Made by a program: the position numbers and the translations under genes. This document shows positions 5,217 through 46,090 of a stretch of 64,000 bases of DNA, piece after piece. The stretch's first letter is position 1. Each line of letters opens with the position of its first letter. The notes beneath the pieces were generated by a model, which was not told the origin of the DNA, ran no database searches, and saw only the letters and a program-made list of their open reading frames with translations. Source of the stretch: Promethearchaeota archaeon (lineage in GTDB: Archaea > Asgardarchaeota > Lokiarchaeia > Sigyniarchaeales > SOKP01); assembly GCA_048941265.1 (NCBI GenBank), contig JBHLNT010000008.1, positions 1,260-65,259 on the forward strand, read 5' to 3'.

Positions 5217-6410
5217 ATGGACATTTATTTAGATTACCAAGCCGCAAAACCTGTGGATGAGAGAGTTTTATCAGAAATGTTCCCTTACTTTAATAAAAAA
5301 TTTGCAAATCCTTCTTCCTTGTATGGAGATGGAGACATTGCGACAGATATTTTAGAAAAATCTCGTGAAAAAGTTGCACATTTTATCAATGCCCCCGACG
5401 CTTCTGATATAATTTTTACATCATGTGCTACAGAATCAAATAATTTAGCTTTGATCGGCGCGGCTCAGAATCGTAAAAGGAAGGGAGATCATATCATCAT
5501 TTCAGAAATAGAGCATATATCAATTTTGAATCTTGCGAAAAATTTGGAGAGAGAAGGTTTCAAAGTGAGTAGGGTTCCTGTAGATCAATATGGGATTATT
5601 AATCTTGATAAGCTTGAGCGTTTAATTACTGATAAAACCATTTTAATTTCTGTTGCTTCAGCTAGTAATGAAGTAGGTTCATTGCAGCCAATTAAGGAAA
5701 TAAGCGAAATTGCCTCCGAAAAGAAAATTTTATTCCATACAGATGCGGTAGCAAGCGAAAGTTCTATACCTATAGACGTACAAAAAGTGCCTATTGATTT
5801 AATTACTTTATCTTCGAATGATATTTATGGCCCAAGAGGAGTAGGAGCTCTGTATTTGAAGAGAGGTGTTCGAGTAAATCCAACAATAATCGGTGGAGGT
5901 CAAGAGCGAGGGATAAGGTCAGGTTCAGAAAATGTACCAGGAATAGTAGGTTTTGCAAAGGCAGCTGAAATTATGAAAGAAGAAATGAGTTCTGAAGCAG
6001 AACGTCTCAAAAATTTAAGAGATAAAGTAATAAAAGGAGTATTGGAGACAATTCCTAAGTCGTATTTAAATGGACATCCTGAAAAAAGGCTTCCCAATAA
6101 TGCACATTTTAGATTTGATTATATTGAGGGAGAATCTTTAATTCTTGGTTTAAAAGATGAAAAAATTGCGGCAGCTACTGGTTCTGCGTGTACTTCAAAA
6201 ACCTTAGAAGCTTCTCATACATTAATAGCTATGGGTTTATTACATGAAGAGGCTCATGGTAGCTTATTATTATCTTTAGGAAGATTTACAAAAGAGGCCG
6301 ATATTGATAAAATTTTAGAAGCTTTACCCAATATAGTTAAAAGGTTAAGGATTTTATCACCCTTAACGCCTCCTGATTTAATAAAACAATATAAAGAGGT
6401 GGATAGTTAA
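5217..6410 (+). CDS. iscS: IscS/NifS-family class-V aminotransferase fold protein lacking the PLP-binding lysine
   Basis: TSCATESNNLAL, HTDAV and the active-site loop GSACTS are all present. The canonical SGHK(I/L)YGPKG motif reads SSNDIYGPRG, so Lys is replaced by Asp202 (codon 5820..5822). A GGAGG SD lies 10 nt upstream. Confidence 0.85.
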   Translation: MDIYLDYQAAKPVDERVLSEMFPYFNKKFANPSSLYGDGDIATDILEKSREKVAHFINAPDASDIIFTSCATESNNLALIGAAQNRKRKGDHIIISEIEHISILNLAKNLEREGFKVSRVPVDQYGIINLDKLERLITDKTILISVASASNEVGSLQPIKEISEIASEKKILFHTDAVASESSIPIDVQKVPIDLITLSSNDIYGPRGVGALYLKRGVRVNPTIIGGGQERGIRSGSENVPGIVGFAKAAEIMKEEMSSEAERLKNLRDKVIKGVLETIPKSYLNGHPEKRLPNNAHFRFDYIEGESLILGLKDEKIAAATGSACTSKTLEASHTLIAMGLLHEEAHGSLLLSLGRFTKEADIDKILEALPNIVKRLRILSPLTPPDLIKQYKEVDS

Positions 6411-7223
6411 ATGAAATCAACAAATTATTCAGAAAAAGTATTAGATCATTTTCGAAATCCGAGAAATGTTGGAGTAATTGAAAATCCGGATGGATATGGG
6501 AAAGTTGGAAATCCTGTATGTGGAGATCTAATGGAAATGTTTATTACTGTAGGAAAAAACGATAAAGGAGAAGAAATTATAGACGATATTAAATTTAGAA
6601 CATTTGGATGCGGTTCAGCTGTTTCTACATCATCAATGGTTACTGAAATGGCAAAAGGTAAAACTCTTGATGAAGCATATAAAATTACCAGGCAAGACGT
6701 TGCTGATGAACTTGATGGATTACCCCCTATTAAAATGCATTGTTCTAACTTAGCTGCAGATGCCTTACAAGCTGCAATACGAAATTATCGCGAAGGGACT
6801 AAACCAGAGGTGGAAGTCATGACGTCCTGTCAGATAGATATACAAGTCATTTTAGGTGTTGATGAATTTCTTGGTAAAGGAGTGTACAAAGAAGTTGAGG
6901 ATTTAACTGAATTTAAAAATAAGAGAGTTTTAGTCTTAGACTCGGGTGATAATTCTTTAGATCTTGCTCTTAAATTAACAGAATACACAGGAAGAGTCAT
7001 AGTAGTGACTTCTGCGAAAGAAATTCCGGGTAATCCTGACTTAAAAAACAAATTGAAACACTCAGATGTCAAAATACTCCAACAATCAGAACTTTTGGAA
7101 ATTAAAGGTGAAACTAACGAAGTTGAGAAAGTTGTCATTCATGATTTTGATGAAGACGAAAATTATGAACTTTTTATAGATGCTGTTATAATTCTGGATG
7201 AAAGACAACCTAAATTAAGCTAA
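6411..7223 (+). CDS. iscU: IscU/NifU-type Fe-S scaffold fused to a degenerate thioredoxin-reductase-like NAD(P)H-domain
   Basis: The N-terminal ~130 aa carry the three scaffold Cys motifs (NPVCGD, FGCGSA, MHCSNLA). The C-terminal ~135 aa follow the TrxR central-domain pattern, but CxxC is replaced (GVYKEVED) and GGGxxA is degenerate (DSGDNSL). Confidence 0.85.
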   Translation: MKSTNYSEKVLDHFRNPRNVGVIENPDGYGKVGNPVCGDLMEMFITVGKNDKGEEIIDDIKFRTFGCGSAVSTSSMVTEMAKGKTLDEAYKITRQDVADELDGLPPIKMHCSNLAADALQAAIRNYREGTKPEVEVMTSCQIDIQVILGVDEFLGKGVYKEVEDLTEFKNKRVLVLDSGDNSLDLALKLTEYTGRVIVVTSAKEIPGNPDLKNKLKHSDVKILQQSELLEIKGETNEVEKVVIHDFDEDENYELFIDAVIILDERQPKLS

Positions 7224-7472
7224 AAAAATTTTTTTATTCTAAATTTTTTTTGAAATTTTTATTATTCAAATAAAAAATTAATTAAATGTTCGTTATATTT
7301 GAACAAAATATTTGTAATTAGGTTTATTTTTATATTTTTTTTGATATTATAAGGTAAATTATAAACTATAATTTGATTACGATTTATTGATTTTAAAAAA
7401 AGTCTCAGGGGTTTTGTGGTAAGTTCCTTTCTTACTTCTACCTAAGGATAAATTAGATAGATTAAATCAACT

Positions 7473-20134: not shown

Positions 20135-20884
20135 ATGGGTGGTGCGTCGAACTCTGGTAAAACGACTTTTATAAATGGCACATACTTTCCTTTTAATGAT
20201 GAGGAATTCTTTCACATAGGTGTTTCTTTTAAATTAATAGATTGCCTCGTTAACAATGAGGATTCCTATCTTCTCCAATTATGGGACTTTAAAGTTATGG
20301 CGCAATTCAAGTGTTTATATCCAAGTTTCTGTAGGGGAGCCAAAGGAGCTCTTATTTGTTTTGATGTATCAGATAAAAAATCCTTCGAGGAACTACATTA
20401 TTGGATAAAAACAATAAGACAAGTGGCTGGAAAAATCCCAATTATCTTGATTGGCACCAAGAATGATTTAAAAAGAGTAGTTACTGACCGAGAGATAAAT
20501 AAAATTATTAAAATTTACCAATTAGATGGGATTTTTTATACTTCAAAAGATAATTATAATCGCGAAACTATTTTTAAAAATTTAATAAAAAAATTGGATA
20601 AAATTTCTGTCAAGCAATTCGCTATATTCTTACCAGAATATGATAAGAAATTCAAAAATTTTATCGATTTTTTCTCATTCTGCCCCGTGTGCAAGCGTAA
20701 ATTACACTTTAATTATTTAAAAAAGTTTTTTTATAGCAGAAATGAAGAATCAATAAGATTAAAAGATTCATTATTATATTTGATTGATGAGTCAAATGAT
20801 TTCGATGATATGTATCATTATAATATTGAATTTGGAATACCATGCTGTAAATGTTATGAACAACTTTTTGGAGTAAACATTTAA
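20135..20884 (+). CDS. Rab/Ras-like P-loop domain with degenerate G3/G4 motifs fused to a C-terminal split zinc ribbon (paralog A)
   Basis: P-loop GGASNSGKTT. G3 position reads WDFKVMAQF rather than WDxAGQE, and G4 reads GTKNDL rather than NKxD. The C-terminus has CPVCKRK ...~55 aa... CCKC. It shares about half its residues with 21041..21841 by eye. Confidence 0.75.
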   Translation: MGGASNSGKTTFINGTYFPFNDEEFFHIGVSFKLIDCLVNNEDSYLLQLWDFKVMAQFKCLYPSFCRGAKGALICFDVSDKKSFEELHYWIKTIRQVAGKIPIILIGTKNDLKRVVTDREINKIIKIYQLDGIFYTSKDNYNRETIFKNLIKKLDKISVKQFAIFLPEYDKKFKNFIDFFSFCPVCKRKLHFNYLKKFFYSRNEESIRLKDSLLYLIDESNDFDDMYHYNIEFGIPCCKCYEQLFGVNI

Positions 20885-21040: not shown

Positions 21041-21841
21041 ATGACTAGAACGTATAAATTAAAAATGATAATCGGAGGGGCTGATGGCTCTGGTAAAACT
21101 TCATTTTTAGATGGAAAAGCTTCTATCAATCTAGAATTCAATAATTTAGGTGTTTCATTTAGACCAATTGAATGTATTGTAAATAACGGAGATTCATATC
21201 AATTTATTTGTTGGGATCCTAATGTAAAGGAAAGATATCGTTTTCTTTTTCCAGTATTTTGCAGAGGTGCCTCATGTGCTATTTTATGTTTTGATGTGTC
21301 AGATCATAAGACTTTTGAAGAATTAAACTTTTGGATTAAAACAGTAAGAAAGAACGGGATAATTAATACTTATAAAATACCGATTGTTTTAGTAGGAACT
21401 AAAAGCGACTTAAATATACGTGAAGTTAGTGATGAGGAAGTTTATAGTCTAATTGACCAATTTGATTTAGATGGAATTTTTTACACATCCATTTATGATA
21501 AAGATCTCAAACAGAAAAAGGAGACGATTTTTAAGATTTTGATTGAAAAGATCGAGCCCTATTATCAAATTGAAGATTTTTCAATTTTCATTCCAAGAGA
21601 AGATGATAAATTTAAAGAATTTTTGCAGCACTTTTCAATTTGCCCAATCTGTGGAAACCAGAACCACTACGACGCCCTCAAAAAGTTTTATTATAGTAGA
21701 GAGCCAAGTCTGATAAACTTAAAAGAAAAATTATTAGATCTCATTGAAGAGTCAAAAGATTTTGGTGATACCTATTACAATGAGATTAATGTTGGAATTC
21801 CCTGCTGTAAATGTTTTGAAATGTATTTCGAAAATAAATAG
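21041..21841 (+). CDS. Rab/Ras-like P-loop domain with degenerate G3/G4 motifs fused to a C-terminal split zinc ribbon (paralog B)
   Basis: P-loop GGADGSGKTS. G3 position reads WDPNVKERY and G4 reads GTKSDL. The C-terminus has CPICGNQ ... CCKC. Confidence 0.8.
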   Translation: MTRTYKLKMIIGGADGSGKTSFLDGKASINLEFNNLGVSFRPIECIVNNGDSYQFICWDPNVKERYRFLFPVFCRGASCAILCFDVSDHKTFEELNFWIKTVRKNGIINTYKIPIVLVGTKSDLNIREVSDEEVYSLIDQFDLDGIFYTSIYDKDLKQKKETIFKILIEKIEPYYQIEDFSIFIPREDDKFKEFLQHFSICPICGNQNHYDALKKFYYSREPSLINLKEKLLDLIEESKDFGDTYYNEINVGIPCCKCFEMYFENK

Positions 21842-27780: not shown

Positions 27781-28989
27781 TCATAATTTTTTAGCATTAT
27801 TCAGCTTATTCTGAGGTTTTTCTGAGATTTCAATCTCTTCCATTTCTTTTACTTTTTTAAAGAATTTCACGGGTTTTGACTCGTCAAACGGCGTGTCGCA
27901 CACCCAGCACAAGTTTTCTAAATTGCTTAATGTTCGTGCACAATTTTCGCAATATAAAGTGTCGCATTCAGGGCAAATATATATATTAAATCGAGCTACT
28001 TTATTTTTACAAACTAAGCAAATTTTCTTTTCTTTAGAAATTGAAACTTCTTCTTCAGTCATTTTTTCAGGTTTTGTGAAAACTCCCCGAATTCCAATGT
28101 TGGTTTGACTATCTTGACTTTTTTCACGTTTTATCCATCTAATTAAAAAAAAACACTCAAGAAAGTAAAAAATGAGATATATAAATGAACCTAAGACATA
28201 TTCAATAGTTTTTACAACAATAACATTATAAATAGTAGAAAACAAAACGCAAACGATTAATGTGAGAATAAATAAATACCAATACTTGATATCACGTGCA
28301 AAGAATTCGGGATTGAATACTGTTGGAGCCATACATAAAAATATTCCAAAAATACATAAAATGGGAAAAATTAATATTGGCGTGTTTTCTAATCGCATTA
28401 CTACTGGATTTATATAAATTATAAAGAATCCTATAAAAAAAGTACCTAAAATAATGAAAGATGTAGCCGCTCTCAGTTCCTTTAGAGACCTTTTCATGAG
28501 CGTAAAAAGGGTATGCAAATAATACAATCCCATTATTGTAAATGTGTAAGCAAAAAGTTCATAGATTGCTAATTCATAGGGTAATAGAATAATCAATGAG
28601 ATAATTGCTACGCATAAAATCGGTGCAAGATGTATTTTTTTTTTAAGGATTTTCTCATAAGTATAAAAATAATAGATATATGCTGCCCAATAAGAGATAT
28701 ACGCACCTTTAATTAACCACATATAAAATAATGAGGGATTCTCAAAATTTCCCCAATAAATATGTCCAATATACTTCCCTTCTAAATAAAAAAAGCTAGA
28801 ATTTATTAAAATTAAGTAAATTGTGATAAATATAAATAAAAAAGCATACCCATTGTTAATAGACTTTTCAGCGGGATTCTCCTTTCTCTTAGCTAACGCA
28901 AAATATTGGAGAGCTGTAATGAACGAAAGAATAGTCGCTATACCAATTAAATAAACATCAAAAACACTAAAAATGATAACATTTCCTAT
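27781..28989 (-). CDS. polytopic membrane protein with C-terminal eight-cysteine RING-like (C4C4 cross-brace type) zinc finger
   Basis: The track ORF is 27781..28722. The frame stays open for 89 more codons that encode TM-like sequence up to 28989. The C-terminus reads CLVCKNKVARFNIYICPECDTLYCENCARTLSNLENLCWVCDTPF (C-x2-C-x11-C-x2-C-x4-C-x2-C-x10-C-x2-C). Confidence 0.7.
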   Translation of the reverse strand: MGNVIIFSVFDVYLIGIATILSFITALQYFALAKRKENPAEKSINNGYAFLFIFITIYLILINSSFFYLEGKYIGHIYWGNFENPSLFYMWLIKGAYISYWAAYIYYFYTYEKILKKKIHLAPILCVAIISLIILLPYELAIYELFAYTFTIMGLYYLHTLFTLMKRSLKELRAATSFIILGTFFIGFFIIYINPVVMRLENTPILIFPILCIFGIFLCMAPTVFNPEFFARDIKYWYLFILTLIVCVLFSTIYNVIVVKTIEYVLGSFIYLIFYFLECFFLIRWIKREKSQDSQTNIGIRGVFTKPEKMTEEEVSISKEKKICLVCKNKVARFNIYICPECDTLYCENCARTLSNLENLCWVCDTPFDESKPVKFFKKVKEMEEIEISEKPQNKLNNAKKL

Positions 28990-29186
28990 TTAAATTCACC
29001 TTTTCTGATCAATTAAAGCTAGTTCCAAATAATCTCTTTTTATCAAAAAGTAATCATCCATATTCGCCTAGTTCAACTAACGTGAATCTACTACTAATAC
29101 GTGCCTAATTTTACTATTTCTCCCTTACTTTATAAATTTTTTACTTTTTTTGACTATCAATCCATCAATTTATTCATTTCTTTAAA

Positions 29187-29849
29187 CTATTTTCTTCCTT
29201 TTTTCATAATAATCTTCATAGCCTTTATATACACAGGCGTCGGGATTATTTCTATGTTTTGAATGAAGTTAATCGAGAAAGGTCGATCACATCGAGAACA
29301 AAGTCTCGAGCTTTTTAACCAACTTCTAAACTCATCAGCGTGTGCTGGGTGTCCACAGTGAGGACAAATAACAATTCCTCTTTTCTCATCTGCAGGAAGT
29401 TTTGGTAATTGAAAACAAAATATACATTTGAAATCTTCCTTATAAAGAATTGTACCTCTTGGTCTTAACTTATTTAGACTATATGTCTTTTTTTTAGCAG
29501 CTGAGTTTCCAGTAGCATAAGTTCTATGAATTGACGCTGAATTCGACGTTGTTTGACTGTATGTTTTTTGAGTGCTTCTAGTCCTTGTATAGTTCATAGG
29601 ATTAGTATTAGAGCGTATGGTGGTGCGTGAGATAGTGCGGGATGTTGTATGATTTACAGTTCGTGTAGGAGTTCGTCTAATAGTATGAGATGTTGTACGA
29701 TTTACAGTTCCTGTAGGAGTTCGTCTGGTAGTGTGAGATGTTGTACGATTTATTGTCCCTCTAGGAGAACGTGTATTGGTGCGATAAGTTGTAGTCTGTG
29801 GTTTTGAAAATAAATTAGCTAGCTTAGCAAACCATCTCTTTTTAGCCAA
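29187..29849 (-). CDS. Thr/Arg-rich tandem-repeat protein with C-terminal RING-H2-like zinc finger
   Basis: The C-terminus is CIFC-x16-CPHCGHPAHADEFRSWL-x7-CSRCDRPF. This resembles the RING-H2 pattern C-x2-C...C-x-H-x2-H...W-L...C-x2-C. The N-terminus has three 16-aa repeats (RTPTGTVNRTTSHT..). TTG start. Confidence 0.7.
   Translation of the reverse strand: MAKKRWFAKLANLFSKPQTTTYRTNTRSPRGTINRTTSHTTRRTPTGTVNRTTSHTIRRTPTRTVNHTTSRTISRTTIRSNTNPMNYTRTRSTQKTYSQTTSNSASIHRTYATGNSAAKKKTYSLNKLRPRGTILYKEDFKCIFCFQLPKLPADEKRGIVICPHCGHPAHADEFRSWLKSSRLCSRCDRPFSINFIQNIEIIPTPVYIKAMKIIMKKGRK
29638..29781. repeat. 48-nt tandem repeat, 3 copies, inside the RING-H2-like gene (encodes the 16-aa T/R-rich repeat)
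   Basis: Units at 29638..29685, 29686..29733 and 29734..29781 were read directly. Copies 1 and 2 are near identical and copy 3 is more diverged. Confidence 0.8.
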
Positions 29850-29888
29850 TTTTACACACCACTATTTTTAATTATTTAAAATATAATA

Positions 29889-29925
29889 TAAAAAAAAAAA
29901 AATTAAGGGAAGGCATAAAGCCTTC
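29889..29925 (-). terminator. hairpin (GAAGGC/GCCTTC) followed by an oligo-T run on the minus strand, just after the Ubl gene stop
   Basis: Stem arms are at 29909..29914 and 29920..29925, with a 5-nt loop. On the minus-strand transcript the hairpin is followed by a run of ~12 T. Oligo-T tracts are established archaeal termination signals. Confidence 0.45.
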
Positions 29926-29929
29926 ATTT

Positions 29930-30277
29930 TTAACCTGCGGTACTAGCAGGGATTAAGAGGACTTCGTCTCCATTAGATACACTATAATTGTTAAGGGGCA
30001 TTCCATCATCCATAGTCACTCCACCCGAGGAAAGGTGAAAATCAGCTGGATTTAAACCAAAAATATTTCCAATGGTTCGCTTAATATCATTTACGGCAAT
30101 GCCGTCATTAACAGTTAACTTCTGCTTTTTCTCACCAGGTCCAATCGTAGATGTGAAATAGAGTGCAATATTTCTCCCTCCTGCTGTGGGAGTCTTGCCA
30201 GCTGGAGTTTTTGATCTTGGTACTGGGACTTCAATATCCTCTGCTAAATCCTCATCAAATTCATCTTTAAAGCTCAT
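29930..30277 (-). CDS. ubiquitin/SAMP-like beta-grasp protein ending in a free C-terminal Ala-Gly
   Basis: The C-terminal ~70 aa (KKQKLTVNDGIAVNDIKRTIGNIFGLNPADFHLSSGGVTMDDGMPLNNYSVSNGDEVLLIPASTAG-stop) follow the ThiS/MoaD/SAMP/ubiquitin tail pattern (..L.dGDEV.liP...G). The N-terminal ~45 aa are acidic and proline-rich. GGAGTG SD lies 6 nt before ATG 30277; the track starts at GTG 30286, inside the SD. Confidence 0.7.
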   Translation of the reverse strand: MSFKDEFDEDLAEDIEVPVPRSKTPAGKTPTAGGRNIALYFTSTIGPGEKKQKLTVNDGIAVNDIKRTIGNIFGLNPADFHLSSGGVTMDDGMPLNNYSVSNGDEVLLIPASTAG

Positions 30278-30540
30278 AATTATCACTCCTTTTATTTGTT
30301 TTCTTATGATTGTTTTACTTAATTAAATGATACTGGTGGGATTATTTGAATGAATTAGGAATAAATGTGAAGAGTTTTATTATTCAAAAAAAAGAGAAAT
30401 TGAAACAATCAAAGTTTCTTAAATAACAATACTATAAATTGAGTGAACGAATAATAAATCTTATAGGTACAATATTTTATCTTAGAAAGAAATAAGCTTG
30501 ATAAAAACAGAGCTATTTAATGTGAGCAAAAAATTCCATT

Positions 30541-31212
30541 ATGAACGCTTCGGATAATGCTGAAAATGTAGTTTTAGGAATAATGAGAGAGTATTTGTCA
30601 AGGAAGCCTTTCTTTTCGATGAAAGATATAGTGGAATTTGTAAATAACCGGGTTAGAAATATCCCTGATATAAATAAGAATAGAATCGAACTCATTACTA
30701 AATCCTTTATCAAGAATAGAATAATAATTCCAGGAACTAAGTTAATGAAAAAGGATATTGTTAATAATCCAACAAGAAATGAAATTTATAAATACATAAA
30801 ACAAAATCCTGCTAAAAATATCAATGAAATTATGAAAGTGCATAATTTAGGGAGTAATTTGGCATTGTGGCATCTTTCTGCGTTGGAAAAATTTCAATTC
30901 ATAAGGTCTAAAAAAATTAGGAATCAATGTGTATTTTTTAAATTTGAATCAGATCCGAAATTTGATCATTTATACTATTATATGGCAAATGATATTGTCC
31001 AGTCTATTATTAATCTCATGAAGAATGATAGGCCGCTCAAGATCACAGAAATAGCTGACGGCCTTAAAAAAAATCATAATACTATAAAGAAATACTTGGA
31101 AATTTTAACCAATCTGAAATTAGTAGAAATTGAAAAAGAAAAATCAAGAGATTTATATAAATTAAATAATGAGAGGTACTTAAAAGCAGTAAAATTAGTG
31201 CGTAGAGGTTAA
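30541..31212 (+). CDS. protein with two tandem winged-helix domains (ArsR-like regulator; ESCRT-II-like double-WH cannot be excluded)
   Basis: 223 aa. The two wHTH-like units are NPTRNEIYKYIKQNPAKNINEIMKVHNLGSNLALWHLSALEKFQFIRS and IINLMKNDRPLKITEIADGLKKNHNTIKKYLEILTNLKLVEI. Confidence 0.65.
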   Translation: MNASDNAENVVLGIMREYLSRKPFFSMKDIVEFVNNRVRNIPDINKNRIELITKSFIKNRIIIPGTKLMKKDIVNNPTRNEIYKYIKQNPAKNINEIMKVHNLGSNLALWHLSALEKFQFIRSKKIRNQCVFFKFESDPKFDHLYYYMANDIVQSIINLMKNDRPLKITEIADGLKKNHNTIKKYLEILTNLKLVEIEKEKSRDLYKLNNERYLKAVKLVRRG

Positions 31213-31296
31213 ATTTAATTTACTTCATATTTAATCCTATTGAATTTTTATTGAATAAAATGAATATAATAATCGTGAGAAAATGATGATAAAATT

Positions 31297-32124
31297 ATGA
31301 CTTCAAATACATCAAAAAATAAAAAACTAAGAATTGTGGTACTATTAGCTCAATGTGCTGCTTTTATACTATTCTATCTCATTTTCTTCTTTGGAAATCC
31401 TCTTTTCTTTCTTATATTGGTTATAGGGAGTGTTGTAGTTCTATCCACCGGTACAATTTATACCGTTATACATCAAGAAAGCATGGATGATAGGATGACT
31501 GGGAAAAAACAATTCGCATCTAAAGTAAAGGCGCTTGAAAAGAGAAAAAAGCTACTAAAAGAGAAAGAAACGACTGATATTATTGAAGATTATATAGCTG
31601 AAATGCCTTTTATCCGGGAATATGTTGATTCAGATAAGTCTTATGAAGAGATGTCTTTAATTGAGAATTTTATTTTTACAGAGCTCAGTTCTAAAGAATT
31701 GGCTAAAATTAATCGTTTAGGATTAGCAGATATTGAGAAAAAACAGTTCATTAAAGAATTACTTTATTATACTCAGGAAGAAAGGAGTAATTTAATTGAT
31801 AGCATGATTGAGAACCTTTATAGACCTGATGAAGAAGTCATATATAAGCCTCCAATGACTTATGTTGAACAGACAAAAACTATTCGTGTTTATGCAATCT
31901 CATTAATAGAAGCAGGGGAGAAAAAGAAAACAATAAACATAGAATCTACAGAATTTGTAAATATAGTTAAGGATCAGTTGGCGCTTATCTTTGAGTACGA
32001 TTTGGAAGATTTTCTATTGTCTACAGGGGGTATAATCATGAACGAAAACGCCCTAATAAAAGATTATAATATTGAAGATAGGGATGAAATTGTTTTGATT
32101 CCTTCAAGAATATCTAAAAAATAA
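31297..32124 (+). CDS. membrane-anchored protein with C-terminal ubiquitin-like beta-grasp domain (no terminal Gly)
   Basis: There are two N-terminal TM helices. The C-terminal ~75 aa (TINIESTEFVNIVKDQLALIFEYDLEDFLLSTGGIIMNENALIKDYNIEDRDEIVLIPSRISKK) align with the 29930..30277 Ubl (..DF.LS.GG..M.....L..Y.....DE..LIP). Confidence 0.7.
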   Translation: MTSNTSKNKKLRIVVLLAQCAAFILFYLIFFFGNPLFFLILVIGSVVVLSTGTIYTVIHQESMDDRMTGKKQFASKVKALEKRKKLLKEKETTDIIEDYIAEMPFIREYVDSDKSYEEMSLIENFIFTELSSKELAKINRLGLADIEKKQFIKELLYYTQEERSNLIDSMIENLYRPDEEVIYKPPMTYVEQTKTIRVYAISLIEAGEKKKTINIESTEFVNIVKDQLALIFEYDLEDFLLSTGGIIMNENALIKDYNIEDRDEIVLIPSRISKK

Positions 32125-32311
32125 AATTATGTAGAATTTACTTCAAATATATTTTTTTCTTCAAAAATCCAATTTTCCTTTTGTAAACATTTAAAATTAT
32201 CTTTTTTTATTAGTAATGAAAAGTAATTATACTAAAAATACAAGGAAGATATTATTTTAAACTTAAAAATCAAGTAAATTCATCAAGTAAAAAATCTTAA
32301 AAGGGGATATT

Positions 32312-32887
32312 ATGAGCGAGGATGAGAGAGGATTAGTTTATAAAATAACTGTAATTGGTGATGGTGCTGTTGGTAAAACTTCCTTAATAAAAAAGTTTAC
32401 TAAGGGAGAATTCAATGAACAATATATAATGACAATGGGTGCCCAATTCACGCAATATCAAACTCAAGTCGAAGGAAACCCCCTAGAATTAGTTTTTTGG
32501 GACATTGCTGGACAGGAGTCATTTGCTCAACTAAGACCGAATTTCTATCAAGGTAGTAGTGCTGCGATTATTGTATTTTCCCATGAGAATAACGAAAAAG
32601 GCGAAAAGAGTTTTCAAAACATCACAAAATGGCTTAATGATGTTAAAAGAAACTGCGGAAGGCTCCCGATAATGTTATTTGGAAACAAGATAGATTTAGT
32701 CACAAATATCGATACTATAGTAAAGAATAAAGAAAATCCAAAGTCAAACTATAACGTAGATATCTTAATGAAAGATTATAACTTTTTAGGGTATTATCTG
32801 ACAAGCGCATTATCAGGGCAAGGTGTTAATCAGGCATTTAACATATTAGCCAATAAATTATATCAAATTTACAAAAATTTTGCTTAA
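32312..32887 (+). CDS. Rab/Ras-like small GTPase (complete G1-G5)
   Basis: G1 GDGAVGKTS, switch-I TMGAQF, G3 WDIAGQESF, G4 GNKIDL and G5 TSALSG are all present. There is no C-terminal Cys. GGGGAT SD. Confidence 0.9.
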   Translation: MSEDERGLVYKITVIGDGAVGKTSLIKKFTKGEFNEQYIMTMGAQFTQYQTQVEGNPLELVFWDIAGQESFAQLRPNFYQGSSAAIIVFSHENNEKGEKSFQNITKWLNDVKRNCGRLPIMLFGNKIDLVTNIDTIVKNKENPKSNYNVDILMKDYNFLGYYLTSALSGQGVNQAFNILANKLYQIYKNFA

Positions 32888-39000: not shown

Positions 39001-40044
39001 TCAACCATTAAGAACAATCATTCTATCCCGAATTTGGTCGCCCAATAAAATACGATAATATTTCTCTTTATCTTTAAACATAACTTTTTCTAATTTTCCT
39101 TCAACTAATACTTTTTCTCCTGTTATAGCGTGCTCACAAAATCTCCCTCGAAAAGAGCTAATCTTTTCAAGAGGGAATTCATCGCTATTGTTGAAAAGCG
39201 GATTACTAGTTAAGATCTTAACTGGATTTATTTTATATTCACATGGTGTAAAAATAGAATCCGTGGAATCAGTAATCTCAGCTGTTAATTTCAATCTTCC
39301 GCAATCAGTATATTTAAAGTCATAAAAATTTCCTTTCCAGTCTTCAGGGTTTTTTATGTATCTAATGAAAAAATCAGTGTTGAAAAATTTTCCTTGATGG
39401 AGTTTTCTTTTCTCACTTCTCATGAAATCTTTAAAAGATAAACTCGAACCACCAGCCCGCCAATTGAAATGACGTTGAAATTCTTCTATGTTATACTTTC
39501 TGCAACTATTTGATTTTTCAAGAATATTTTCTAGCTTTTCCTGAAAAGCTAAACTTGTTTTTGTTCCATATATAATTAAGTCAATATCCGAATTTTCATT
39601 AGCTAGGCTAACCATAGGCGATCCTGTGATCCCAATTGCATTCTTGGGAATATTTCCTTTATTAATAAAGACTTCGCATAATTCTTTGCAATATTCTTCT
39701 AGTCTAGTCAAATTGACTTTTCTACATATTCGTTTGAAGTAATCTTTTGGGGAATACATTTTTTTTATATCCTTAATTTCAACTCCTTGTACTTCTAAAT
39801 CGAGCTCTTCGGAAAAGAAAATGTATTTTGGAAATCTTTCTTTCAAAAAGGTGTACCGCTCTTTAATATTATAAATTTTCTTATACAGTATATTTTTTCT
39901 TACGCGGTCGCCCTCCTTATCGGGATAAAATCTAATGAAACAGATTTTACGATCATTAGGATGCAATAGCCCCTTTACATCAAATATCAGGTTATCCTTT
40001 TTAGTTTCAATGTAATCTCCTTCAATACCATAAAATGGGTCCAT
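39001..40044 (-). CDS. predicted Pol-beta-superfamily nucleotidyltransferase with C-terminal OB-like region
   Basis: GITGSPMVSLANENSDIDLIIYG matches the G[SG]...D.D nucleotidyltransferase signature. The rest is not recognisable. Confidence 0.55.
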   Translation of the reverse strand: MDPFYGIEGDYIETKKDNLIFDVKGLLHPNDRKICFIRFYPDKEGDRVRKNILYKKIYNIKERYTFLKERFPKYIFFSEELDLEVQGVEIKDIKKMYSPKDYFKRICRKVNLTRLEEYCKELCEVFINKGNIPKNAIGITGSPMVSLANENSDIDLIIYGTKTSLAFQEKLENILEKSNSCRKYNIEEFQRHFNWRAGGSSLSFKDFMRSEKRKLHQGKFFNTDFFIRYIKNPEDWKGNFYDFKYTDCGRLKLTAEITDSTDSIFTPCEYKINPVKILTSNPLFNNSDEFPLEKISSFRGRFCEHAITGEKVLVEGKLEKVMFKDKEKYYRILLGDQIRDRMIVLNG

Positions 40045-43856: not shown

Positions 43857-44807
43857 TTATTTATGAATATTTTTTCTTAAATCTCCCAAAGTAGTAGATA
43901 ATTCAGCATATACATTATGGGGGTGAATAGATTCATAACTTTCAATTTTGAAGTTTATTTTAAAATTATCATCCAAATTCGGGAATTCTCTTGCTATAAA
44001 ATTTTTTGCCATTTCACGGACGACATCTTCAGAAAATAATGGTTTTAAATGGGCACTTCTAACTAATTCAGCTTCTTCTGGTCTTTTTAAAACAGATTGG
44101 ATCCGTCCACTCATAGATTCCTCAATAATATCTATGATATCCAAAACATCAACTTTATGGCTATTTAAATCTTTAATTTGTACGACAATAGTACCTTTTG
44201 ATCTCTGATTATGGGATGAGAAAGGAAGTATATTTATCAATTTTTTCAAGTCTTCTTCAGATATATTAATATCTTTTCTTGATTTAATAACTTCTTCGGC
44301 ATATTCTTGAGACATCTCTTTAGCACATGGACAAACTGTGAGACCAACTGCACTTGCTCCTATGAAATAGTTAAAATCAATTTTTCCGGGTTCCTTCTTT
44401 TCCGCTAATACATAAGAGCTTATATCATAAGATTTTTGAATAGTTCTTTGTTCGCTTTCTCGAACTTGAACTACAATCCTTCCTTTCAGTTTAACTTCTG
44501 CTTTAGTAGTGTATGGATGTTTTTCTAATAAACCTTTTACGATCCTATCAGCAACTTTCTCAATCGTAGGTGTGGGTGTGAAGATCACTTCATTTATAAT
44601 CTCTTCAATTGTTTCAGAAGTTCGTGACATATGAATACCCCGTTGCTGAGCTGGTAGATTGATTAATGCTGAAATTTTCGGATAAAAAGAATATCTTTTA
44701 TTTTCCTGAACAATTTCAACTTTTTTTTCCAAATCAATAATACCAACTTTATCAAGTGCTATATCTAATGACGAGTCAGAATTTTGTAAGTCCGATTTGA
44801 ATGGCAT
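43857..44807 (-). CDS. mptA: GTP cyclohydrolase, FolE2/MptA family (first step of methanopterin/folate pterin synthesis)
   Basis: 316 aa with QRGIHMSR, VCPCAKE and the length typical of the family. Confidence 0.8.
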   Translation of the reverse strand: MPFKSDLQNSDSSLDIALDKVGIIDLEKKVEIVQENKRYSFYPKISALINLPAQQRGIHMSRTSETIEEIINEVIFTPTPTIEKVADRIVKGLLEKHPYTTKAEVKLKGRIVVQVRESEQRTIQKSYDISSYVLAEKKEPGKIDFNYFIGASAVGLTVCPCAKEMSQEYAEEVIKSRKDINISEEDLKKLINILPFSSHNQRSKGTIVVQIKDLNSHKVDVLDIIDIIEESMSGRIQSVLKRPEEAELVRSAHLKPLFSEDVVREMAKNFIAREFPNLDDNFKINFKIESYESIHPHNVYAELSTTLGDLRKNIHK

Positions 44808-44921: not shown

Positions 44922-46090
44922 ATGACGAATAAGGAGATTGAAAGTCGATATGGACTCATTGGCGATGAATTAGACCTTAAAGAAAATGTATCTTTAATTA
45001 TCAATGAAGATGGAAAAATTCTAAAAGTGCGATATGACAACCCTAAAAAGAATATTGAAATTGGAACCGATAAACATAATTTATTAATGATGCCTGGTTT
45101 CATAAACTCCCATACCCATATTGTTGATAGTTTTGCTAAAGAAATGGGATTTAATAAAGATCTAATGGAAGTTGTTGCGCCTCCGAATGGATTGAAGCAT
45201 AAATTATTAAAGAACACGTCAAGAGAAATAAAGTCAATCGGTATAAAAAATGCAATTTCAGAAATGCTGACAAATGGTATAACTTTTTTTGTTGATTTTC
45301 GAGAAAGAGATATTGAGGGTATTCAATTTTTAAAAGATTCATTGAAAGGTTTACCTTTAAATTATATAATTTTAGGACGCTTTACCGACGCCAAAGAAAT
45401 CGAAGAGATTTTCAAAGAGGGCGATGGAATTGGTTTATCTAGCTATAATGATTTATCTATTTATATTAAAGAGAGGCTAAAGTATTTTAAAAATATATTC
45501 AAGAAACCAATTGCTTGTCATGATGCCGAAGTCGAAAGAGATAAAGCATTATTTGAGGAGATTATAAATGATGATTTAATAGATATTATTGTCCATGGAA
45601 CTCATTACACAAAAGAAGATTTAGAATTAATAAAAAATAAAAAATATCACTAATCTTGTGTCCAAGAAGTAATGGATATTTTGGAGTTGGATTTCCTCCC
45701 ATAACAGAAATTATAAGATTACAGATTCCTATAAGTTTAGGAACAGATAATATTATGATAAATAATACCGATTTATTTGAAGAATTACGCTACACATATC
45801 GAATTTTAAGAGTTTTAGGGAGAAATGATGAAAATGTTAAATTAGATTCAAAAGAATTGTTAAAAATGATAACAATTAATGCTGCGAGAAATTTTAATTT
45901 AGAAAAAAATAGGGGATCAATTTCACAGGGAAAAGTAGCAGATTTATTATTAATAGATTTAAATGATCCAAATTTCTATTCATTTAAAGTTGATTCTAAT
46001 AATATATTCCCCTTAATAGTACAAAGAGCTAAATCTGAAAATATAAAAAGAGTTTATATAAGAGGAGAGCTTGTTTTTGAAAGAAGTTAA
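44922..46090 (+). pseudogene. amidohydrolase-superfamily protein (chlorohydrolase/deaminase-like) interrupted by a 1-nt frameshift in an A-run
   Basis: The two ORFs 44922..45653 and 45656..46090 lie in different frames. The first carries MPGFINSHTHIV (HxH). The second frame, read from 45641, gives KISLILCPRSN...LGTDN, which continues the family pattern. The shift falls in TAAAAAATAAAAAAT at 45631..45645. Confidence 0.75.

Follow-up and report, generated by a model that had tools for sequence, protein, structure and literature searches.

A probable reduced and rearranged ubiquitin locus in a Lokiarchaeial genome

Introduction

The 64,000-nucleotide (nt) stretch of DNA analysed here, in the following called the window, belongs to a Promethearchaeota archaeon from the Lokiarchaeia (GenBank assembly GCA_048941265.1, contig JBHLNT010000008.1, positions 1,260 to 65,259) and has a G+C content of about 30%. 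Six genes, g1 to g6, are located between positions 27781 and 32887, among them genes for a small ubiquitin-like protein (Ubl; g3) and for a RING-type protein (g2). It is rather likely that the locus represents a reduced and rearranged Lokiarchaeial ubiquitin locus, whose enzymes are provided by a second, complete operon elsewhere in the genome. The absence of genes for the activating (E1) and the conjugating enzyme (E2) is explained as a lineage-specific reduction of the canonical operon, for which a supply in trans most likely compensates.

Operons with genes for ubiquitin, E1, E2 and a RING protein, partly also a JAMM protease, are an established feature of Aigarchaeota and Asgard archaea. 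No better model than the ubiquitin systems of Asgard archaea is available for the origin of eukaryotic ubiquitylation.

Methods

All six open reading frames (ORFs) which a first-pass annotation of this DNA had listed were found in place. The relatives were 80 Lokiarchaeial loci, labelled L0xx, from a scan of one genome per species with the Ubl, and their synteny was read by tblastn with the genes of the window. Genes for E1, E2 and JAB proteases were searched in the window by tblastn with the Lokiarchaeial enzymes and by profile hidden Markov models (HMMs) of 39–47 orthologs against all six-frame ORFs. Ratios of nonsynonymous to synonymous substitutions (dN/dS) were calculated according to Nei and Gojobori for the window versus L002, L003, L004 and L040, and Pfam family calls were judged against the curated gathering cut-offs.

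The ubiquitin locus in related genomes

The tblastn comparison of the 80 loci revealed a recurrent gene order. Beyond an MJ0043-like gene, a second Ubl gene (Ubl2) converges with g5, which is preceded by g4 on the same strand; divergently from g4 the Ubl gene is read, and an interval of about 3.5 kb separates it from a g2-like sequence of the same direction. In L069 this interval codes for a ThiF-family E1 of 411 amino acids (aa), a UBC-type E2 of 175 aa with HPN motif and catalytic Cys, and a JAB/MPN+ protease of 278 aa with an intact JAMM motif (H-x-H-x7-S-x2-D). It ends in the N-terminal, multi-transmembrane half of a 389-aa ligase (E3), whose C-terminal half consists of a linker and the finger and is the homolog of g2. 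All operon enzymes exceeded the curated Pfam cut-offs (ThiF 197.5 bits, UQ_con 88 bits, JAB 55 bits). The canonical operon is composed of Ubl, E1 (ThiF), E2 (UQ_con), JAB and a multi-transmembrane RING E3; it is opened by the ortholog of g3 and runs divergently from the tandem winged-helix gene g4 and the membrane Ubl-domain gene g5.

This canonical arrangement, g5-g4 followed by the divergent Ubl-E1-E2-JAB-RING operon, was present in 39 of the 80 loci, and in another nine the operon occurs without g4 and g5 nearby, so that in 48 loci the gene for E1 follows immediately on the orthologous Ubl. A lone Ubl gene was found in 27 cases (the one copy inspected had unrelated neighbours), and one locus was truncated. 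Four loci, with the window as an additional member, are reduced like the window: L002 of LW40_45, L003 of ABR15, L004 of LW60_4 and L040 of TEKIR_6S. E1, E2, JAB, the transmembrane half of the E3 and Ubl2 are all missing in the window sublineage, and what is left is the Ubl g3 followed by the linker and RING part g2. In agreement with this, g2 aligns with residues 242–389 of the transmembrane RING protein of L069, and by this alignment g2 corresponds to the C-terminal half of the multi-transmembrane RING E3 of the canonical operon.

The first-pass annotation had described a cluster of six consecutive genes. The order g5-g4|g3-g2 is indeed kept in the relatives. However, g1 is not found at its window position, between g2 and the gene for alanyl-tRNA synthetase, in L002 and L003, whereas g6 occupies its position only in the window and in L002 and is absent in L003 and L004. 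The conserved unit therefore comprises these four genes and not six.

Neither tblastn with the Lokiarchaeial enzymes nor the profile HMMs (best E 0.02, which is noise) detected a gene for E1, E2 or JAB in the 64-kb window, as had also been stated before. Two relatives with the reduced locus possess a complete operon in addition, namely ABR15 (reduced locus L003, complete Ubl-E1-E2-JAB-transmembrane-RING operon L005) and LW60_4 (L004 and L070, respectively). Because both genomes hold the reduced locus together with a complete operon, enzyme supply in trans is the best-supported reading, and it corresponds to one option of the first-pass annotation, enzymes encoded elsewhere. The other option was an autonomous, non-canonical Ubl/RING module without E1 and E2, in which the Ubl would act non-covalently or be attached by an unknown enzyme and g4, g5 and g1 would be dedicated partners. 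Such a module appears very improbable. It would account for the lack of the three enzymes within 64 kb and for a reduced gene set that stays under purifying selection through a sublineage, and the locus does employ non-conjugatable Ubl domains, as is seen from g5; but g3 retains the IPASTAG end with terminal Gly common to the operon-encoded Ubls, g2 retains the RING-H2 residues which bind E2 in canonical RINGs, no alternative candidate for an activating enzyme lies nearby in the window, and the two relatives just named have full operons at other sites. Locus comparison and Pfam point instead to a derived, truncated form of the Ubl-E1-E2-JAB-transmembrane-RING operon.

The modifier g3

The gene g3 (29930..30277, minus strand) encodes a protein of 115 aa whose sequence ends with LLIPASTAG directly before the stop codon. 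The gene was called identically in GCA_048937645.1, where it lies on a contig of 9.7 kb. More than 830 homologs with 63–92% identity were found, all from Lokiarchaeia/Promethearchaeota, and many of them were already annotated with PF00240 or as 'ubiquitin-like domain-containing protein'. The family profile matches ubiquitin chains in the PDB, including entries named 'putative ubiquitin', as well as HUB1 and ISG15, and the Pfam ubiquitin score of g3 itself lies just under the threshold. The assignment of both small proteins of the cluster, g3 and g5, to the beta-grasp fold by the first-pass annotation is borne out by such profile matches to the ubiquitin family.

The C-terminal IPASTAG is invariant in all 27 aligned homologs, with Gly115 as the last residue of g3; in several of the aligned proteins the Gly is followed by another 1–3 residues. 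Furthermore, the tail IP[AST]S[TIV]AG occurs in every one of the 117 free Ubl genes of the related loci; 96 of these stop at the Gly and 21 continue for 1–7 aa. Since the Gly end is common and some members carry short extensions, the family is regarded as a conjugatable modifier which is at times made as a precursor. The beta-grasp domain is preceded by a conserved N-terminal extension of about 37 aa, acidic at its beginning (MSFxDEFDEDL...SKTPAxKTP) and with an invariant K-T-P. To judge from its sequence, g3 belongs to the ubiquitin family and is a modifier whose C-terminal Gly is exposed or can be exposed by processing. The dN/dS values of g3, g4 and g5 lie together in the range of 0.12–0.36.

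The single-Gly tail with short extensions and the partners rich in winged helices and transmembrane segments had also raised the idea of a UFM1-like system. This was rejected, as the g3 profile matches ubiquitin and not UFM1 (the best 60 PDB matches listed contain no UFM1 chain) and the E2 of the operon is a canonical UQ_con protein with HPN. UFL1-DDRGK1 appeared as a weak, generic tandem winged-helix match of g4 in Foldseek.

Between the stop codon of g3 and the start of g2 a consensus scan detected a hairpin (GAAGGC-n5-GCCTTC, 6-bp stem) with a T-rich tail at 29909..29925 on the minus strand. It may represent an attenuator or terminator which sets the ratio of Ubl to E3.

The RING-type protein g2

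The product of g2 (29187..29849, minus strand) has 220 aa and consists of a short N-terminal helix, a disordered linker rich in Thr, Arg and Ser, and a RING-H2-like domain at about residues 125–220. The linker contains a genuine T/R-rich tandem repeat of 48 nt (16 aa). Invariant in the family are C142, C145, C162, C165, H170, E173, F174, W177, C184 and C187, while H167 varies. The register fits RING-H2, with Ile after ligand 1, His at ligand 5 and Trp four residues past ligand 6; a paralogous RING-H2 protein in L070 has a Cys at the ligand 6 position where g2 has Glu.

In the AlphaFold2 (AF2) model residues 121–220 reach predicted local distance difference test (pLDDT) values of 84–93 and residues 15–118 are disordered. 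The core is of the beta-beta-alpha type (strands 159–161 and 168–170, helix 171–180) with extra helices. Nearly all of the top 50 PDB matches in Foldseek are RING or U-box proteins (GATOR2, TRIM37, LubX, RNF4, Rbx1, HRD1, TRIM32, Rad18), the HRD1 RING being at rank 29. In addition, zf-RING_16 matches 26 of the 31 family members (best E 8.7e-4), in each case under the gathering score, and a sequence-profile search of the PDB with the g2 family gave low-complexity noise only. From the predicted structure it is concluded that g2 probably adopts a cross-brace fold of the RING/U-box type with a non-standard ligand set and is not a plain zinc ribbon, which agrees with the RING-like finger proposed earlier.

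The form of the E3 without transmembrane segments is represented by 43 sequence clusters (189–244 aa, 55–100% identity), in which the RING is almost invariant and which share a new N-terminus, MAKKKW[FY]AKL. This N-terminus (residues 1–16 of g2, positions 29804–29849) is basic and amphipathic-looking (M/L-AKKKW[FY]AKLxNLFSK), has a low pLDDT and is predicted to be helical. The N-terminal helix could be a peripheral membrane anchor in place of the lost transmembrane domain. Because g2 has lost this domain, the label 'membrane-proximal', given to the system by the first-pass annotation, describes the window less well than its ancestor.

For the RING part of g2 dN/dS is 0.07–0.24 and for the linker 0.26–0.49. 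As the values of the g2 RING, g3, g4 and g5 are well below 1, the genes of the reduced locus are maintained by selection, and with its 43 E3 clusters the reduced form is regarded as old. These values also bear on the possibility that the locus is a decaying remnant, left over after a second operon had taken over, and that its genes have no more role in ubiquitylation. This explanation is improbable: it is in line with the loss of E1, E2, JAB, Ubl2 and the transmembrane domain of the E3, with the lack of a canonical start codon in g1 and with a frameshift-split amidohydrolase gene nearby, but besides the low dN/dS values it is opposed by g3, g4 and g5, which are intact and highly conserved, and by the E3 without transmembrane domain, which occurs in 43 clusters down to 55% identity with a near-invariant RING and a conserved new N-terminus.

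The winged-helix protein g4 and the intergenic region

The gene g4 (30541..31212, plus strand) encodes a protein of 223 aa with two winged helix-turn-helix (wHTH) units of the ArsR type and an N-terminal helical unit. Three Pfam families exceed their cut-offs (given in brackets): HTH_5 with 29.8 bits (22) at residues 156–196, HTH_24 with 27.7 bits (21.9) at residues 76–117 and HrcA_DNA-bdg with 25.2 bits (21). The family comprises 305 proteins, and among those listed nearly all have about 223 aa and are 59–100% identical. All of its named members are assigned to Promethearchaeota, to Lokiarchaeia or to other Asgard bins, and the annotation of some reads 'predicted transcriptional regulator'. 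In the AF2 model (mean pLDDT 87.9) three helices at the N-terminus form one unit, which is followed by two canonical winged helices and closed by a C-terminal helix. Foldseek returned generic tandem winged-helix proteins with query-normalised TM-scores (TMq) of 0.25–0.34 (Pol III Rpc82/C34, SelB, ScpB, TFIIIC, ESCRT-II and UFL1-DDRGK1) as well as ArsR/SmtB/CadC repressors, which cover one winged helix with target-normalised TM-scores (TMt) of 0.6–0.78 and 17–24% identity. In 39 or more loci g4 is syntenic with the ubiquitin operon.

The first-pass annotation had left open whether the double winged-helix protein is a regulator or an adaptor resembling ESCRT-II (endosomal sorting complex required for transport II). 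Because g4 resembles a single-chain pair of ArsR-type wHTH domains, the regulator is the likelier of the two, and from sequence and model together g4 probably regulates the transcription of the divergent ubiquitin locus as a single chain. An identification with ESCRT-II was rejected: 3cuq_A and 2zme appear only at Foldseek ranks 17–28, and no ESCRT-II family of Pfam matches g4 at E≤1. A broader variant, in which g4 would be a winged-helix protein scaffold of the Vps25/Vps22 or UFL1/DDRGK1 kind and would, jointly with g5, tie the Ubl system to membranes, is considered unlikely. The tandem winged-helix architecture, the probable co-transcription with the membrane Ubl-domain gene g5 and a length and sequence which are unusually constant for a regulator would all suit a scaffold. 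The ESCRT-II structures and a UFL1-DDRGK1 chimera (8b9x) are listed by Foldseek with E-values of 2e-3 to 4e-3, but they rank below Pol III, SelB and ScpB and reach TMq values of only 0.25–0.30, whereas the Pfam families above the threshold are those of the ArsR-type HTH. Furthermore, no ESCRT genes were found in the annotated parts of the window, and Lokiarchaeota were reported to hold ubiquitin and ESCRT genes in separate regions (PMC9192718).

The genes g3 and g4 are separated by 263 bp (30278..30540), a putative divergent promoter and regulatory region which was compared by MAFFT in 41 orthologous regions. Blocks such as TTCTCTCTAAAACAAT, CATTCATACAATTTATAATAT and AAAACTTCAAAATCATTCCAA are strongly conserved over about 40 genomes, and the block close to the Ubl has a diverged version in the window sublineage. 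Since the flanking proteins are only about 60% identical, these blocks are candidate promoter or operator elements. A scan for bacterial-type promoters gave a count at chance level, which is uninformative because the consensus is bacterial and the host an archaeon.

The membrane protein g5

The gene g5 (31297..32124, plus strand) encodes an N-terminal transmembrane hairpin, a helical middle domain and a C-terminal Ubl domain ending with LIPSRISKK. In the 29 aligned orthologs the hairpin contains invariant Ser/Tyr residues, the helical middle domain is conserved and has no known match, and the C-terminal ubiquitin-family domain ends with LIPSRKEKN, that is, without Gly. The Pfam ubiquitin family matches all 29 orthologs (best E 1e-7), g5 of the window scoring 23.2 bits at a cut-off of 25.4, and the profile matches PDB ubiquitin over residues 187–257. 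With 31% identity and tblastn E-values of 1e-10 to 1e-12, g5 is a paralog of g3, and the first-pass description of a paralogous Ubl domain without terminal Gly thus stands. The gene always adjoins g4 in the related loci. A match of the N-terminus to EMC3/TMCO1 (Oxa1-like) was discarded as a compositional artefact, for it concerned only two of the 29 members and was sub-threshold. The Ubl domain of g5 is a membrane-held, non-conjugatable one, and by analogy with Herp/Usa1 we infer that it may serve as a docking or adaptor element.

Model and its weak points

The following sequence of events is proposed. The ancestral locus would have consisted of Ubl2 converging with g5 and g4 and, divergent from these, an operon for Ubl, a ThiF-type E1, a UBC-type E2, a JAB/MPN+ protease and an E3 with several transmembrane segments, a T/R/S-rich linker and a RING. 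In the window sublineage the stretch from E1 through the transmembrane half of the E3 would have been lost, and Ubl2 as well. The product of g3 would be made in its mature form, ending in Gly115, and would be adenylated and thioesterified by an E1 and handed to an E2, both originating from a second operon as in ABR15 and LW60_4. The RING surface of g2 (Ile143, Trp177) may bind the charged E2 and promote transfer to substrates, while a JAB protease acting in trans would undo the modification and process the precursor forms of some orthologs. As a single-chain pseudo-dimer with two ArsR-type wHTH units, the g4 protein would bind the conserved DNA between g3 and g4 and regulate the divergent genes, and g5 would present its non-conjugatable Ubl domain at the membrane, where it could dock ubiquitin machinery or downstream Ubl receptors. 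In this model g1 and g6 stand outside the conserved unit, g6 being presumably one of many small GTPases of the genome.

Several points weigh against this explanation. For the organism of the window the supply of E1, E2 and JAB in trans is inferred from two relatives, and cluster look-ups with the E1, E2 and JAB of the relatives (in the repeat with E2 only) gave no named member with the prefix ACFFDK_. No Lokiarchaeial member of the cascade was biochemically tested in the Asgard and archaeal ubiquitin literature compared here, and what g4 and g5 do in the model is putative. The tail of g3 is Ala-Gly and not Gly-Gly. The ligand set of g2 falls short of eight Cys/His, with seven invariant residues, an invariant Glu173 at position 6 and a variable H167; all Pfam RING matches of g2 are below the gathering thresholds and its Foldseek E-values are weak (0.014–0.2). 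Finally, g2 and g3 are alike in their identity to the canonical and to the second-site operons (about 50–57% for the RING, 63–77% for the Ubl), so that either of them may be the source of g2 and g3. The deletion may have followed a duplication of the operon.

As a possible but doubtful extension, the reduced locus might be a second Ubl/E3 pair with a specialised role, made up of a soluble RING and its own Ubl paralog, which shares one E1-E2-JAB set encoded elsewhere and stands beside the regulatory and membrane module g4/g5. If true, this would be an early prokaryotic case of the eukaryotic pattern in which few E1 and E2 enzymes serve many E3/Ubl pairs, and the ancestral form with its multi-transmembrane RING E3 and the g4/g5 module would resemble a quality-control unit for membrane proteins of the kind known from endoplasmic-reticulum-associated degradation (ERAD).

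Neighbouring genes

The gene g1 (27781..28989, minus strand) is an open frame of 402 codons for a protein of about 400 aa with about 7–8 hydrophobic segments and a C-terminal C4C4 finger, which confirms the polytopic protein with an eight-Cys finger described before, and it is regarded as an accessory neighbour. The Cys spacing is C-x2-C-x11-C-x2-C-x4-C-x2-C-x10-C-x2-C; C324, C327, C339, C342, C350, C361 and C364 are invariant in the family and C347 is near-invariant. The family has 886 representatives at E≤1e-3 and at least 209 at E≤1e-30, mostly full-length with about 390–400 aa. Pfam matches are mixed and all sub-threshold (C1_2 in 14 of 28 members, zf-C3HC4_3 in 11 of 28, furthermore DZR, B-box, Prok-RING_1, FYVE and PHD), and a PDB profile search gave RING matches only at insignificant values (RBBP6 E 0.18, TRIM37 E 0.29). 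By its sequence g1 is a candidate for a separate membrane E3 from a large family.

At its 5' end g1 has no ATG, GTG or TTG, and the first canonical start is the ATG at 28722. This start, which was chosen in another assembly of the same organism, would remove 89 aa and about two transmembrane helices. The codon at 28989–28987 is ATA and aligns with Met1 of homologs ('IGNVIIFSVFD' versus 'MGDVIIFSVFD' in P0292); a TAA stop stands before it and a Shine-Dalgarno-like GGTGA motif lies 6 nt upstream. The ATA is either a mutated start codon or a rare ATA start. A frameshift as the cause of the missing start was dropped, as the homologs align from the ATA codon onwards without an indel.

The first-pass annotation had taken the fingers of g1 and g2 as homologous because of a common C-x2-C-D-x-P-F ending. 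This ending is not conserved, since D188 and F191 vary in the g2 family. However, an hhalign comparison of the two finger families (probability 41%, E 2.8e-4) placed all ligand pairs in register, with Cys5 and Cys6 of g1 opposite H170 and E173 of g2, and their sequence relationship has moderate support through this shared ligand architecture. Tandem TPR-repeat proteins ending in a g1-type C4C4 finger are encoded at 5588–6973 and 6939–8303 of L010, upstream of a lone Ubl. Because these proteins carry the same finger, the g1-type finger appears to be a mobile module joined to various N-terminal domains.

Homologs of g1 also occur near complete ubiquitin operons in L035 and L070. The stretch upstream of these second-site operons (L070 4332–8551, L035 4344–8549) encodes three proteins: one is g1-like, with transmembrane segments, a C4C4 finger and 35% identity, another is the beta subunit of a proteasome (Pfam Proteasome, E 6.5e-51), and the third is a coiled-coil protein of about 695 aa (694 aa) whose C-terminal RING-H2 finger has Cys at ligand 6. 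This gene set and the ubiquitin operon form a ubiquitin-proteasome supercluster. At another second site, L005, a protein of 279 aa is encoded at 6432–7271, about 1.6 kb downstream of the complete operon and beyond two genes on the opposite strand. In this Ubl fusion or precursor a zinc-ribbon-like CxxC region at the N-terminus is linked through a coiled part to a C-terminal Ubl whose last residues are IIPSSTAGLF.

Small GTPase genes are abundant in Lokiarchaeia. The product of g6 (32312..32887, plus strand) is a Ras-superfamily small GTPase (Pfam Ras 134.5 bits, Roc 109 bits) with the readable motifs GDGAVGKT, DIAGQE, NKID and SAL. The earlier designation as a Rab/Ras-like GTPase holds for the superfamily, but the C-terminal Cys motif typical of Rab proteins is missing; the sequence ends with YKNFA and has no C-terminal Cys for prenylation. 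Two further Ras-family genes lie at 20135..20884 and 21041..21841. Because there are three such genes in 64 kb and the adjacency is not kept in relatives, the position of g6 next to the ubiquitin genes is probably incidental.

The genes which flank the canonical operon persist in the window in a rearranged form. A block of PNPOx, FtsZ-like and MJ0043-like genes is located directly beside the cluster, a nucleotidyltransferase gene at 39001..40044 and GCHY-1 at 43857..44807, followed downstream by the amidohydrolase and RibD_C genes. The amidohydrolase is split over two frames (44922–45653 and 45656–46090), whereas its ortholog in L069 is a single ORF of 389 aa; this is a frameshift, caused by pseudogenisation or by an assembly error.

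Comparison with known systems

The operon of Candidatus Caldiarchaeum subterraneum contains genes for ubiquitin, an E1-like and an E2-like protein and srfp with an adjacent Rpn11/JAMM gene, and its cascade was reconstituted in vitro (PMC5654768). The window shares with it a small RING E3 and a modifier of the ubiquitin family, at times made in precursor form, and the orthologous Lokiarchaeial loci share the ThiF-type E1, the UBC-type E2 (HPN, catalytic Cys) and the JAMM protein in one operon. A modifier ending in Gly (g3) and a RING-type E3 (g2) are the features of the operon systems present in the window, whereas E1, E2 and JAB are absent from its 64 kb. The modifier of the window also differs by its Ala-Gly instead of Gly-Gly end and its N-terminal extension of about 37 aa, and the ancestral Lokiarchaeial E3 is a multi-transmembrane protein and not a small soluble RING. 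A conserved divergent g4/g5 pair does not belong to the arrangement given in the parts of PMC5654768 that were compared.

In Asgard archaea a Helarchaeial cascade of E1, E2 and RING was reconstituted in vitro (bioRxiv 10.1101/2023.07.25.550441), and in Lokiarchaeota ubiquitin and ESCRT genes were located in two discrete regions (PMC9192718). The locus described here belongs to this phylum-level system, with the same enzyme families and with ubiquitin genes apart from ESCRT genes. It differs, however, in being truncated, without E1, E2 and JAB and without a UEV-Vps23 or ESCRT neighbour, and in the tail of the modifier, which ends with STAG, compared with a di-Gly tail followed by an SPKN extension.

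Among the single components, g4 is similar to the ArsR/SmtB repressors in that its C-terminal winged helix exceeds the HTH_5 threshold and superposes with them, and in that the gene is divergent from its presumed target. In contrast to these homodimers g4 would be a single chain with two wHTH units and an N-terminal helical unit, and no residues of a metal site were identified in it. RING domains of the CNOT4-type have a C4C4 spacing of C-x2-C-x13-C-x-C-x4-C-x2-C-x11-16-C-x2-C. The finger of g1 resembles them in its eight invariant or near-invariant Cys and in the x4 and x2 spacing of the central knuckle, but its sub-threshold Pfam matches are mixed with C1, B-box, FYVE and PHD.

In eukaryotic ERAD the membrane RING-H2 E3 Hrd1 works with the membrane-anchored Ubl-domain cofactors Herp/Usa1. 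By way of analogy the canonical Lokiarchaeial locus likewise pairs a multi-transmembrane RING-H2-like E3 with a transmembrane, non-conjugatable Ubl protein. The transmembrane domains show no link in sequence or fold, however, the Ubl domain of g5 is C-terminal, and the E3 of the window has no transmembrane segments.

The multi-transmembrane E3, the partners g4 and g5, the Ala-Gly tail together with the occasional precursor tails and the N-terminal extension, and a selected Ubl and RING remnant without transmembrane domain appear to be under-described in the literature on Asgard ubiquitin. These results overturn no current views. They indicate that the Lokiarchaeial ubiquitin operon is stably linked to the genes of a tandem-wHTH and a membrane Ubl-domain protein and that its E3 was ancestrally a polytopic membrane RING. 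They also supply testable parts, namely g2 as a soluble and easily expressed E3, g4 with a candidate operator region of 263 bp, and g5 as a membrane adaptor with a Ubl domain. In comparison with the operon systems known so far, one sublineage seems to have split a Ubl and RING pair from E1, E2 and JAB under selection, which is a step needed for many E3/Ubl pairs working on shared enzymes.

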